Shown here in pieces: positions 6,003-58,943 of a DNA stretch of 64,000 nt. The notes beneath the pieces were generated by a model, which saw only the letters and a list, made by a program, of their open reading frames with translations, ran no database searches and had not been told where the DNA came from. Both the position numbers and the translations under genes were made by a program. Within the stretch, counting starts at the first letter, position 1. Each line of letters begins with the position of its first letter. The DNA lies in contig CAVQFQ010000004.1 of the NCBI GenBank assembly GCA_963711835.1, positions 192,001 to 256,000 on the forward strand, in the 5' to 3' direction. This DNA is from an uncultured delta proteobacterium. GTDB taxonomy: Bacteria > Desulfobacterota > RBG-13-43-22.

Positions 6003-7946
6003 TTACTTCCTCCTTCTTCGATAGGTCAGCACCATGGCCGGGATTGAAATGGCCAGCAGCAGCAGGGCGGCGTAGAGCAGGATCCTCACGTTGGGCCGGT
6101 TTTCGGCCTCCCGGTAGGCCCGCCTCATTTCCGGATCAATCCGGATATACTTCCGGTAGTTGCCGGAGATGCTGTGGGACTTGCCGTTTTTTACCCAGGC
6201 CTGGCGTAAGACATAGGAGGGGGAATGAATATTGAAGATCCAGGGGCACTCCTCGACCACGATGGCCACCATCTTCCGGATCACCGCCTCCCGCTCCGGC
6301 GTGTTTTCCATGATCTTCATCTGCTCGTAGAGGCGGTCGTATTCCGGATTGGCAAAGGAAGAACCGTTCGGGTTGGGGGGGGCGTTGGGGCCGTAGAGCA
6401 GTTGAAGAAAGTTTTCCGGGTCGGGATAATCGGCATTCCAGCCCAGGGAAAACATCTGGAAGGTCCCTTTGTGGCTTCGTTCCAGGTGCTGAGACCAGGT
6501 ATTCACCTGGAGCTTCATCTTGAGCCCGAGCTGTTCAAAACAGCGCATGTCGAAGGTGGCCACCTCACGGGCCCGGGTGGAGTCGGACCCTATGTCATAG
6601 GTCAATTCCAGCGGTTTGCCGGTCTTGGGATCAATCCCTTCTGGATAACCGGCCTTGGCCAGAAGCTCCCTGGCCTTGGCCGGGTCATAGGCTTTATAAG
6701 GATTTCTCAAGGTCGGATCGTAGCCGAAAATACCCGGGGGTAAGGGTCCCTGGGCGTTGATGGCCCGGCCGTTCAGGAAGATCTGGTTGTACAGGTCCGT
6801 ATCATAAGCCAGGGACATGGCCTGGCGCAGATATTTGTTCTTTCCCAAAAGGGGGTCGCGCATGTTGAAGGCCAAATAAAAGACCGATAGTTCGCTGGCG
6901 ATTTCGAGCGAGATCCCCTTTTTGACGAATCGGTCCGAAAGCTCCAGGTTTTTGGTAACCACCTTGTCGAACTGCTCCTGGGGGATCCCGGATGCATCCA
7001 GATAACCCTGGAGGAAAAGAAGCCAGACCGGCTGGCCGGCGGATATGATGGTGTACCAGACCTCATCCAAAAAAGGCAAGTGTTTACCGGCGTCGGCCAG
7101 GAGGCCTTTCTCCCGGTCGCCCGGAGCGCCGCTTAAAGGATAAGTTTCCTTTCTGAAGCTGGGGCTTCTGTCCATGATGATCCGGTGCTGCCGCTTCCAC
7201 TGTTTGAGCCGGTAAGCGCCGGTCCCGACCGGATGGCGGGAAAAGCCTTCCCGCCCAGGGGCGTTGTAATAGTCCACCGCTTCCCTGGCCACCGGAGCGG
7301 TGTAAGGCATGCTCATCACATAAATAAAAGCCGGAAAGGGCTCGGTCAAGGTGACTTTCAAGGTCTGGTCGTCAAGGGCCTTCAGCCCTTCGATCTCCCA
7401 GACATAATCCGCTTTCCCGGCCGCGACGGCCCGGTTGAAAAAGGCATCTAACCCTTTTATTTTGCCCGAAACCAGCCAATAGCCGGTGGATTGAACCGCC
7501 GGATCAGCCAGTCTTTTAATGGCATAGATCACATCATCGGCGGTCACGCGACGCCCCCTGCCTCCCGGGAAACAGGGATCATCCTGGAAAAAGATGTCCG
7601 GCCTCAATTTGAATTGATATTCCATCCTGGCCTTTTTGACCCTTTTCCCTTTCTCCTGCACCTCCTCGTAAAAAATCCGCTTCTCCGGAAAGGCGGCCGC
7701 CAGGGCCGGTATAACCGTGTAGGGCCGGTCAAGGTAGGCGTTCTGAAAAAGAGAGTCGTATATCTGGCAGAGGATCTCGGCCGAGGTGGTGTCGGAAACC
7801 TGCGCCGGATCAAGGGTCCTGGGGTCTTCGCCGAGGGCGGCGTAGCCGATCAATTTTCGGTCTTCCGGAGGATAGGGGTTGTTTCCGCAGGCCTGGACAA
7901 AGGCCGTCAGCATTAAAGCAAGCCATAAAATTCTATTTTTTTTCAT
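6003..7946 (-). CDS. Peptide ABC transporter substrate-binding lipoprotein (SBP family 5) with extra C-terminal TM helix
   Basis: Lipobox FVQAC, LDPA, PVGTGAY, GWNADYPDP; C-terminal hydrophobic stretch followed by RRRRK. Confidence 0.92.
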   Translation of the reverse strand: MKKNRILWLALMLTAFVQACGNNPYPPEDRKLIGYAALGEDPRTLDPAQVSDTTSAEILCQIYDSLFQNAYLDRPYTVIPALAAAFPEKRIFYEEVQEKGKRVKKARMEYQFKLRPDIFFQDDPCFPGGRGRRVTADDVIYAIKRLADPAVQSTGYWLVSGKIKGLDAFFNRAVAAGKADYVWEIEGLKALDDQTLKVTLTEPFPAFIYVMSMPYTAPVAREAVDYYNAPGREGFSRHPVGTGAYRLKQWKRQHRIIMDRSPSFRKETYPLSGAPGDREKGLLADAGKHLPFLDEVWYTIISAGQPVWLLFLQGYLDASGIPQEQFDKVVTKNLELSDRFVKKGISLEIASELSVFYLAFNMRDPLLGKNKYLRQAMSLAYDTDLYNQIFLNGRAINAQGPLPPGIFGYDPTLRNPYKAYDPAKARELLAKAGYPEGIDPKTGKPLELTYDIGSDSTRAREVATFDMRCFEQLGLKMKLQVNTWSQHLERSHKGTFQMFSLGWNADYPDPENFLQLLYGPNAPPNPNGSSFANPEYDRLYEQMKIMENTPEREAVIRKMVAIVVEECPWIFNIHSPSYVLRQAWVKNGKSHSISGNYRKYIRIDPEMRRAYREAENRPNVRILLYAALLLLAISIPAMVLTYRRRRK

Positions 7947-8220
7947 TCTTACCCTTTAGACAACCCCAGAAAAAAGACCCCCCGGTCCCTGTTGGTCACT
8001 ATTATTTTGAGACCCTTAATAAATAATGACCTTAGGGCTTGATTATCTTTTTTAGATTTGTTGAATATAAAATAGGGAGGTAATGGGGGTCAAGGGGAAA
8101 GATTTGGGCCTTGAGCAAGGAAAGCCGGGCTTAAGGAATCCCAAGGGCTGAAAAGGGCGGCCTGTTGTTTTCGCTTGATTAGTATGGTATGGGTCAGAAA
8201 CGGAATCCGAAACAGAGGAC

Positions 8221-9885: not shown

Positions 9886-9896
9886 TAAGCTTTAAA

Positions 9897-10180
9897 TTCT
9901 TACATCTCTTAGTCCGAGAATTTATCTCTAACTTCCCAAAATTAGGTGTAGGGGGATCCTATTTTTTATGTTGTCCAAAGGGTGACTAAGAGTCCCTAAT
10001 CCGGCCCGAATAACTAAGTTTATTTTATAGCAGGGCATTCACCCCAGCCCATTTCCAGCTTGGGTGTAAGCCTGTCCCGCCAGGCGGGACTCATGGCTTG
10101 GGGGTGGACAATTTAAAAAATAGGATCCCCCTACACCATTTCATCAGGACTTTAAAAAAATTTCAAATATCTTTGGTTAG
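9897..10180. mobile_element. Dispersed IR-cassette element, copy 1 (33-bp IRs at 9945-9977 and 10105-10137)
   Basis: Arms match 31/33; arms, core and flanks are homologous to the copies at 38.3 kb and 58.7 kb. Confidence 0.8.
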
Positions 10181-11208: not shown

Positions 11209-11232
11209 CCCGGAGATTCTTAATCATTCATC

Positions 11233-11338
11233 AGTATCGTTCAAAAGTTTTGGCACTGGCGCATTATTGCCTGACTAGGGGACCGGGGGTCTTCCAATGG
11301 GTATTAGAAATATAATGCCACAACTTTTGAACGATATC
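11233..11338. mobile_element. MITE-like element, 106 bp
   Basis: 21-bp subterminal IRs (11235-11255/11316-11336, 20/21 match) flanked by an 8-bp direct repeat CATTCATC (11225-11232, 11339-11346). Confidence 0.75.
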
Positions 11339-37356: not shown

Positions 37357-38247
37357 GATTTCCGTCCCCACCCCGCTGTCGGTGAACAGTTCCAACAGAA
37401 GGGCGTTTTCTACCCGGCCGTCGATGATATGGGCCTTTTCCACGCCCTGGGCCAGGGCTTCCAGACAACAATTGACCTTGGGGATCATCCCTCCGGCAAT
37501 CGTCCCGTCAGCCAGCAAACCGGGGATATCGGCGGCTTTCAGGGAAGGGATCAAGCGGCCTTTCCGATCTTTGACCCCTTCCACATCGGTCAACAGGATC
37601 AGTTTGGGGGCCTTTAAGGCCGCCGCCACCCGGCCGGCGACCAGATCGGCGTTGATATTATAGGTCCTTCCCTGCCGTCCGACCCCGATCGGTGCGATGA
37701 CCGGGATAAAATTATGATCTTCCAGGGTCCGGATGATCTCGGTATTGACCTCAATGACCTCACCGACCATGCCGATATCCATCAACTCCGGGGGATCTTC
37801 GGGGCCTCGGCTCGTGAAGACCTTCATTTTCTGAGCCAGGATGAGCTGGCCGTCCTTACCGCTCAAACCAATGGCCTTGCCGCCCTGTTGATTGATCAGA
37901 TGGACGATCTCCTTATTGACCTTCCCTCCCAGCACCATTTCGACCACATCCATGGTCCGGCTGTCTGTAACCCGGACGCCCTGGACAAACCGGGAGGTAA
38001 TGTGCATCTCATCCAGAACTTTTTTTATCTGAGGTCCCCCGCCGTGCACCACCACCGGATTAAGACCGATGTATTTCATGAGGACAATACTCTTGGCAAA
38101 GCTGTTTTTGAGCGTTTCATCCACCATGGCATGGCCGCCGTATTTGATCACCATGGTCTGATGATAGAAGCGGCGGATGTACGGCAAGGCTTCCATCAGG
38201 ATGGCCGCCTTTTCCCCAAAAGTCTGCTGGTCTTTATTCTTAGCCAT
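37345..38247 (-). CDS. argB: Acetylglutamate kinase
   Basis: [23 protein letters not shown]. Confidence 0.97.
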
Positions 38248-38266
38248 AGTTGCTAACGGCCTCTGT

Positions 38267-38502
38267 TCTGAGAATTTATCTCTATCAGGTGTAGGGGGGT
38301 CCTATTTTTTAAGTTGTCCAAAGGGTGATTAAGAGCCCCCAATCCGGCCCGAATAGCTAAGATCATTTGAGAGCAGGGCCTTCACCTTAGCCCATTGCCA
38401 GCTCAGGTATAGGCCTGCTTCCAAAACAGGTTCCGACCTTGGTCCGGCAAAGAAGTTCAGGGCTTTATGGTGGACAACTTAAAAATAGGACCCCCCTACA
38501 CC
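38267..38502. mobile_element. Dispersed IR-cassette element, copy 2 (IRs at 38288-38320 and 38471-38502)
   Basis: Arms identical except for one base in the T/A run; core homologous to copy 1; partial left flank TCTGAGAATTTATCTCT. Confidence 0.8.
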
Positions 38503-58657: not shown

Positions 58658-58690
58658 GGGTGTCCTCCTAAAGCTTTTTTTATAATTAGA

Positions 58691-58943
58691 TTTTTACATC
58701 TTTTAGTCTGAGAATTTATCCCTAACCTTCCAAAATCAGGTGTAGGGGGGGTCTATTTTTTAAGTTGTCCATCCCAAAGCCATAAGTCCCGCCTCGGCGG
58801 GATGAATGCCCTGCTCTAAAATAAACTTAGTTGATTGGGCCGGATTAGGGGCTCTTGGTCACCCTTTGGACAACTTAAAAAATAGACCCCCCCTACACCA
58901 TTTCTTCGAGACTTTAAAAAAAGTTTCACATATTTTTGATTAG
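58691..58943. mobile_element. Dispersed IR-cassette element, copy 3 (perfect 33-bp IRs at 58739-58771 and 58867-58899; core inverted)
   Basis: Flanks align with copy 1 in direct orientation; the core aligns with copy 1 only as reverse complement. Confidence 0.85.

Follow-up and report, generated by a model that had tools for sequence, protein, structure and literature searches.

Co-variation between the arms of a multicopy 33-bp inverted repeat in a desulfobacterial genome: a probable footprint of arm-to-arm copying

Introduction

A 33-bp inverted repeat occurs three times in a 64,000-nucleotide stretch of DNA from an uncultured delta proteobacterium (Desulfobacterota, RBG-13-43-22; assembly GCA_963711835.1, contig CAVQFQ010000004.1, positions 192,001 to 256,000), referred to here as the window, and its arms raise the question of how the two arms of one copy come to share bases that other copies lack. 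At arm positions 12-14, both arms were reported to read ATC in copy 1, GTC in copy 2 and GGT in copy 3, and we found the same on re-reading the sequence. The sequence-only reading that drew attention to the locus argued that protein-bound ends decaying independently would not behave in this way, and offered two explanations. Either the pairing of a long stem is under selection, as in a REPIN-like or structured non-coding RNA, or the arms are homogenised by recombination linked to inversion of the interior. Here we describe the element to which the arms belong, measure the co-variation across the genome and in relatives, and weigh the processes that could have produced it.

Results

The three copies in the window

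Copy 1 lies between the housekeeping genes fpg and mdh. Its left arm (9945-9977, plus strand) and right arm (10105-10137, minus strand) are complementary at 31 of 33 positions, both carry A at position 12, and they enclose a hairpin core in P-to-Q orientation (9978-10104, plus strand), part of which is replaced by a CCCGCC..GGCGGG palindrome at about 10074-10090. As DNA, the region 9890-10180 folds with -57.3 kcal/mol (z = -7.3). Copy 2 (38288-38502, plus strand) lies between hslU and argB, also housekeeping genes, and has a full-length core between arms at 38288-38320 and 38471-38502, the right arm being one T short. Copy 3 (58739-58899, minus strand) lies upstream of the gene for an ECF sigma factor; its arms (58739-58771 and 58867-58899) are complementary at all 33 positions, and its core is shortened, inverted relative to the flanking sequence and contains a short palindrome (58788-58801).

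Conserved sequence extends about 45-50 bp beyond the arms on each side and forms an outer shell, named A, with a "Y" side at 9893-9944 and an "X" side at 10138-10180 in copy 1, and at 58687-58738 and 58900-58943 in copy 3 (all minus strand). Copy 2 has a variant Y side (38247-38287, minus strand); its X side is absent and its right flank is unrelated. It had been noted that no target duplication lies immediately outside the inverted repeats, and we likewise see none beside the arms; these, however, do not form the ends of the element. The window also holds a collapsed shell of another family, D, between mdh and glpK (11234-11337), in which the core is gone and one arm is partly kept, and half an element of family B (7951-8019, minus strand) fused just upstream of an ORF starting at 7946.

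The claim that arms agree within copies and differ between them holds for copies 1 and 3, while copy 2 is uninformative since GTC is the family consensus. Relative to that consensus, copy 1 has a single substitution, G12A, which is carried by two elements, and copy 3, whose GGT is private to it, differs by what amounts to a shift of one base.

One core in several shells

The genome is a draft assembly of 28 contigs, estimated to be 89% complete with 6.4% contamination. It contains 107 elements with paired arms and 145 loci with similarity to the core. The common plan is a unit of about 215 bp, consisting of a 33-bp arm, a folded core with distinct P and Q sides and a second 33-bp arm, which is set in an outer shell whose X and Y sides differ, giving a whole element of about 260-390 bp. 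There are at least four shells, and the main families, A (20 elements), B (16), C (41) and D (26), are unrelated to one another. The cores are homologous across shell families, and each shell has its own version of the outer 8 bp of the arm. Whatever the shell or genome, the arm measures 33-34 bp and has a sharp outer edge. In many of the truncated copies the break falls at arm positions 6-16. Some stretches are nearly identical on different contigs (G000 C1:1-324 and C21:25566-25893; copies on C27 of C17 elements; C24:931 and C5:104785), perhaps reflecting a mixture of strains or redundancy in the assembly.

Shells C and D have the hallmarks of MITEs, namely terminal inverted repeats and target duplication: among copies with both ends found, direct repeats of at least 8 nt, one mismatch allowed, flank 25 of 35 C copies and 15 of 20 D copies, some of these by chance since the flanks are rich in A+T. 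For the collapsed D shell in the window, a contig of a relative (run X1) skips 11225-11338 and thus provides a precise empty site, with 8 letters that fit either side. Shell A is not a MITE in the classical sense, as its ends are dissimilar and have only CTA in common. Profiles of Mutator/ISH6-type transposases (PF06782, PF00872) found no match in this genome, PF06782 being silent in the controls as well. A search of 301 genomes of the phylum with the collapsed D shell gave only two matches, a D-like end at two contig ends of one genome (G104).

Among 401 genomes of the phylum, the core was found only in two genera of this bacterial family, apart from one 24-bp chance match elsewhere, and blocks of its interior are conserved across the two genera. 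Pattern matches in relatives came from bins labelled Deltaproteobacteria or Thermodesulfobacteriota; two viral pattern matches lay in unrelated coding DNA and were discarded.

Co-variation of the arms

We defined a both-arm deviation as the same non-consensus base in both arms of one element and counted such deviations in 96 elements (the 107 paired elements less five that fitted the four families poorly and six chimeric, other-shell or duplicate copies; the two C27 copies of C17 elements were excluded from the counts). There were 67, more than chance allows: when arms were permuted within families 5000 times, the average was 17.6 and no round exceeded 33. They were spread over 23 arm positions. 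Counting only variants present in at most two elements, 20 were found in both arms where 1.1 would be expected. Private variants, those of a single element, numbered 38, with 16 in both arms and 22 in one, and the rate of change in the shell spacers predicts only about 1.3 private both-arm changes through double hits. Transversions, which have no wobble intermediate, made up 11 of the 16, an excess that was not significant (Fisher p = 0.10).

As an internal control we used the terminal repeats of the shells themselves, in 69 of the same elements. Here no private variant was found in both ends and 33 were found in one, which differs from the arms (16 versus 22) with Fisher p = 7e-6. When all shared changes in the terminal repeats were counted there were 6 against 2.5 expected, all of them at polymorphisms common to several copies. 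The terminal repeats thus behave just as was expected of protein-bound ends, which would decay independently and show no co-variation. The pattern recurred in 53 elements of five other genomes (102 both-arm deviations against 25.9 expected), although this test pools shell families within a genome, which overstates the effect, and is to be read as recurrence rather than as a second statistic. The co-variation of the arms is real and general.

The arms have also changed little. Private changes per arm site amounted to 0.0050 in both arms and 0.0034 in one arm, compared with 0.028 in shell spacers; if neutral DNA were copied without bias, about three times as many would be expected. In families B, C and D, a one-base bulge close to arm position 27 is still present in 15 of 16, 36 of 38 and 19 of 22 copies, respectively. 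In the element at C4:442020, both-arm changes at positions 3 and 29 lie on either side of the retained bulge.

Inversion and collapse of the core

Both orientations of the core occur in every family (8 and 12 copies in A, 13 and 3 in B, 9 and 29 in C, 2 and 20 in D); in B (p = 0.02), C (p = 0.002) and D (p = 0.0001) the split departs from 50:50. The inversions are scattered on the trees, which are weakly supported: family C requires nine changes for nine minority copies, and family A requires seven. In the nine inverted C copies the bulge follows the core in seven and the shell in two, and a marker at arm position 9 follows the shell. The exchange points therefore vary, and together with the orientation bias in B, C and D this differs from a phase-variable switch with a fixed crossover and frequent flipping. 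Some copies have perfect repeats of 35-41 bp that reach into the core. In contigs of relatives we observed one joint between opposite strands, which may derive from another copy.

The core can also be lost. In collapsed forms it has been removed between repeats of 2-5 bp made by small palindromes within the arms, and 9 of 34 shell-A pairs are core-less in this way.

A CTA-ended element behind shell A

A relative (G019, contig C51, locus L239:427-2276) carries an 1850-bp element that consists of an X end, an ORF for a protein of 539 residues and a Y end. Both ends of shell A match it. The X sides of copies 1 and 3 are identical to the 5' end at 28 of 31 (10150-10180) and 24 of 31 positions (58913-58943), and the Y sides, kept across family A, are identical to the 3' end at 27 of 43 and 30 of 43 positions, with 26 of 43 for the variant Y side of copy 2. 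Judged by this similarity, the X and Y sides are relics of the 5' and 3' ends, and the shell of the copies in the window arose from the CTA-ended element by deletion. In several relatives (L221, L234, L214, L032, L035), shell A ends bracket other hairpins of short tandem units and not this core.

The element has CTA at both ends and no terminal repeats. In 49 complete elements there was no duplication beyond CTA in 38, and one of 2-4 nt in 11. Among 80 metagenome loci (L257-L336) the 5' end motif gave 69 matches, and in 38 of the 44 loci where a full ORF could be parsed the 3' motif was no further than 90 bases from the stop codon. One locus (L300) contains a head-to-tail junction through CTA. 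The elements measure 1.75-2.2 kb, are multicopy and encode a protein of the 539-residue type alone; in some members from these loci a second small ORF lies upstream on the other strand. At four loci of relatives (L036, L039, L041, L224) the element's 3' end stands alone as a palindrome of about 62 bp, possibly itself a fold-back product.

The protein is widespread: of 7999 candidates that were scored, 6375 proved to be homologues, and 8181 clusters were counted at 50% identity. Its gene is present in 6 of 20 genomes of the family and was not found in the 89% complete genome studied here. Distant homologues (21-26% identity) occur in five near-identical copies in G020 (L246, L250, L253, L255, L256) and three in G016 (L248, L252, L254). 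Several of these adjoin short palindromic repeats, and at G000 C17:358341 and C27:6573 a core arm is joined to sequence that the G016-type 3' end resembles. The protein matched no Pfam family at E-values up to 1 and nothing in NCBIfam or the PDB sequences, had no significant match in PHROGs, and fell only into unnamed clusters of the Atlas. In the literature accessible to us we found no description of such an element, which leaves its novelty unproven.

Predicted fold of the 539-residue protein

A structure model built from 111 sequences reached a pLDDT of 87.6 (an earlier model, with a pLDDT of 54, was usable only in the winged helix). In this model residues 5-381 align with the archaeal TATA-binding protein (TBP) 1mp9 over 181 of 189 residues (Z 9.1, rmsd 4.0), at rank 37 and below winged-helix matches to residues 384-500 (Z up to 11.4). 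Foldseek returned viral TBPs and A0A345MNV4 (E 3.3e-4), which is named an inovirus Rep_trans initiator in PMC13107129. Weak structural matches in the PDB included the rolling-circle initiators 4cij and 4cwe (E 0.018 and 0.026), with low TM-scores and mixed with unrelated chains. D20, E253, Y328, K330, R336 and E338 are conserved in diverse homologues, the motif being YxK and not YxxK. These residues echo the tyrosine and acidic ligands that PMC13107129 lists for RepDE.

Given the TBP-fold matches, the initiator matches and the conserved tyrosine and acidic residues, our best guess is that the protein would be a Rep_trans-like rolling-circle transposase, a putative tyrosine nicking enzyme with a TBP fold. 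It resembles the Rep_trans, MOBT and Rep-Arvir initiators (PF02486; PMC13107129) in its predicted TBP fold, Tyr-x-Lys motif, downstream Arg-x-Glu and conserved acidic residues, and Rep-Arvir also in its predicted C-terminal winged helix. It differs from them in lacking a sequence match to the Pfam family and in being the lone gene of a multicopy CTA-ended element rather than of a plasmid, phage or ICE.

Search for a Y1/HUH partner

It had been suggested that a HUH/RAYT or other recombinase gene might be co-distributed with the repeats. Y1 HUH genes with terminal repeats are indeed present in the genome, and they fit the TIRYT type, or subclass 2.1, as characterised in PMC3733652, PMC6006769 and PMC5581495, but their ends do not match the arms; the partner that did emerge belongs to the outer shell and is not a HUH protein. 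A link to TIRYT had been prompted by a GGGGTC motif and an apparent 12-bp spacing to TTG. We discarded it after a matrix made from 45 GGGTC-type ends scored the arms at -12 to -34 and the ends themselves at +5 to +22, with shuffled arms scoring as well in 22-92% of cases, although other Y1 subgroups may exist. The Y1 loci scanned in this genome and relatives (about 80 of some 200 family matches) contained no match to the core, and in none did repeat copies flank the gene as in REPIN/RAYT systems. Two IS110 copies in the genome have unrelated ends.

Likeness to the TIRtrons (PMC3733652, PMC6006769) lies in terminal inverted repeats of 25-33 bp with a GGGG[AT]C motif and in the abundance of such TnpA-Y1 genes in this family. 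The arms differ in lacking a conserved A-N-N-TCT after GGGTC and in placing GGGGTC 8 bp inside the arm. The element also recalls the bacterial MITEs and RAYT-mobilised REPINs of PMC5581495 and PMC3733652 in being short, gene-less, intergenic and high-copy, with a long imperfect hairpin and collapsed or nested forms; it differs in that no cognate RAYT or TIRYT was found and that the hairpin rides as a passenger within four or more unrelated shells, which supply the mobile ends. Many TIRYT-type Y1 genes (about 220-345 residues; L001-L012, L120-L199) have terminal repeats of 20-35 bp, often with a TTGACA-like hexamer at the inner end of the repeat, and gene-less derivatives of such elements occur at G000 C12:3433-3709 and C12:86169-86415.

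Discussion

The co-variation of the arms was most likely left by a mutational process that is already known, and it is seen here unusually clearly. We propose that after insertion one arm would be repeatedly copied onto the other during host replication, by homology-driven template switching or short gene conversion. A strand that folds back would copy an arm, a switch to the sister strand would also invert the core, and slippage across the stem would delete it. Copying, inversion and collapse may thus be outcomes of a single fold-back and strand-switch process helped by the self-folding core. Host replication is the agent that we infer, and an identical pattern would be left by recombination accompanied by short conversion from arm to arm. 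The composite would presumably spread through the shell's own transposase acting in trans. The excess of identical changes in both arms and the recurrent inversion of the spacer with variable switch points are as expected of template switching. Of the two original explanations, it is homogenisation tied to inversion that fits the scattered inversions, the variable exchange points and the tracts that run past the arm.

Copying over long tracts is disfavoured, since it should erase the bulge, yet the bulge has been retained. The kept bulge, the low arm divergence, the conserved interior blocks and the shortness of published inversions imply either that the tracts are short or that the arm or the folded strand is also under selection. 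Purifying selection probably acts on the arms on top of copying. Nor does copying account for the presence of one core, with its sharp 33-bp edge, in several unrelated shells, or for the origin of that core. As a whole, the scheme of post-insertion arm copying at replication, a shell transposase acting in trans and some selection on the arms seems to us moderately probable.

Could the pairing itself be what is maintained? An element acting as a structured non-coding RNA would be consistent with the stable fold of copy 2 as RNA (-108.8 kcal/mol, z = -6.9) and with the conserved interior blocks, but any inverted repeat folds well, and inversion and loss of the core are tolerated. Arm mismatches show no bias towards G·U over A·C (38 versus 36; 18 versus 19 in a second count), the core is oriented 29:31 to host transcription, with no strand bias, and Rfam gave no match for the element. 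The RNA explanation put forward by the sequence-only reading is thus not upheld, and we regard it as very improbable. A different form of selection would have the folded single strand of the core serve in mobilisation, as a recognition hairpin or a priming site for the second strand, with pairing and bulge selected and copying merely supplying the variants. The retained bulge, the low divergence of the arms and the conservation of interior blocks in two genera agree with this, as do the predicted rolling-circle-type partner of shell A and the other hairpins held by that shell in relatives. Interior helices on the P-to-Q strand have 445 G·T against 154 A·C pairs, although this excess is circular since the structure was predicted on that strand and both strands fold about equally (-91.8 and -87.4). 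We nevertheless consider such a signal unlikely, given how common core-less shells are, that private both-arm changes lie on terminal branches, and that the core is also found in shells with 8-bp target duplications, where no single-stranded step is expected.

The sharp outer edge of the arm, present everywhere although the outer 8 bp differ and without a target duplication, speaks for a dedicated enzyme. A site-specific invertase, or a nickase of HUH or Rep type, would cut the arms and flip or excise the core, repair synthesis would homogenise them, and the core would be, or have been, a mobile unit of its own with 33-bp ends. The frequent breaks of truncated copies at positions 6-16 would suit such cutting, and the genome has 12 Y1 and 7 tyrosine-recombinase matches. 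However, one orientation clearly predominates in B, C and D, the exchange points vary, no gene was found between paired arms in this genome or in 66 loci of relatives, the arms misfit the TIRYT matrix, and the Y1 loci scanned lack the core; we think this decidedly unlikely. That the matching arms arose in assembly or read correction is hardly credible. The assembly is fragmented, and L023 of a relative has a 118-bp inverted duplication at a contig end, but the shared variants are private and could not be created by consensus errors, other mismatches and the bulge survive in the arms, and the pattern recurs in five other assemblies. Furthermore, as judged from depths, the run X1 contig at the same locus does not have the consensus base of other copies at 10126.

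Arm-to-arm copying of the kind proposed has precedents. Homogenised arms with an inverted spacer have been attributed to intra- or intermolecular template switching (PMC8604942), template switching has been inferred for proteobacterial inverted repeats (PMC5941160), and it can imitate compensatory change in RNA stems (PMC8794818). The likeness to the quasi-palindromes of these three sources extends to inversion of the spacer, to multi-base changes that are private and present in both arms, to switch points that vary and to the absence of wobble bias. The spacer inversions in PMC8604942 are of 2-5 bp, whereas here 33-bp arms enclose a folded spacer of 95-170 bp. Further differences are the approximately 100 parallel replicates in one genome, the internal negative control and the persistent one-base bulge.

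The collapsed forms recall nearly precise excision of Tn10, in which the interior is deleted between short direct repeats made by small palindromes within the inverted ends. In both cases a short palindrome is left, but here the repeats are of 2-5 bp and the core is of 200 bp.

The predicted transposase of shell A cannot alone explain the co-variation of the arms, since this is as strong in shells C and D. The element behind the shell shares with IS91, IS200-IS605 and IS110 the lack of terminal inverted repeats, the lack of duplication beyond a short core common to both ends, and the head-to-tail junction of L300. It is set apart from them by its core, CTA, and by a protein that is neither HUH nor DEDD according to the profiles tested. 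A bolder reading, which we offer tentatively as possible rather than probable, is that it represents an undescribed and widespread IS family moving by rolling circle at CTA through a non-HUH, TBP-fold tyrosine transposase, whose gene-less derivatives would package self-correcting hairpins for a single-stranded intermediate.

Strong co-variation of a stem without selection on RNA is found here as a clean natural case, with about 100 replicates and a built-in control. It calls for caution in covariation-based RNA discovery and offers a ready system for testing template switching over long spacers. What is new on the side of the shell is the tie between shell A and an unannotated, widespread element with a predicted TBP-fold transposase. 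If the protein is a Rep_trans-like transposase, it would represent a new catalytic class among bacterial insertion sequences, and since the ends of the element are short and defined, a test in vitro should be straightforward.

A short palindrome of the form CCCGCC-N2-5-GGCGGG, seen at 10074-10090 and 58788-58801 and in many copies in the genome, replaces stretches of the core at varying places and does not interrupt it. At G000 C10:53482-55974 (L110) a family-D element is interrupted by a two-ORF insertion sequence of DDE type, which is inserted within the loop of a small CCCGC..GCGGG palindrome and is accompanied by a short duplication. Like the half element at 7951-8019, others at G000 C4:124937, C5:147418 and C17:99878 are fused to host genes only a few bases before the start codon, a position from which the G-rich arm could serve as a ribosome-binding site.
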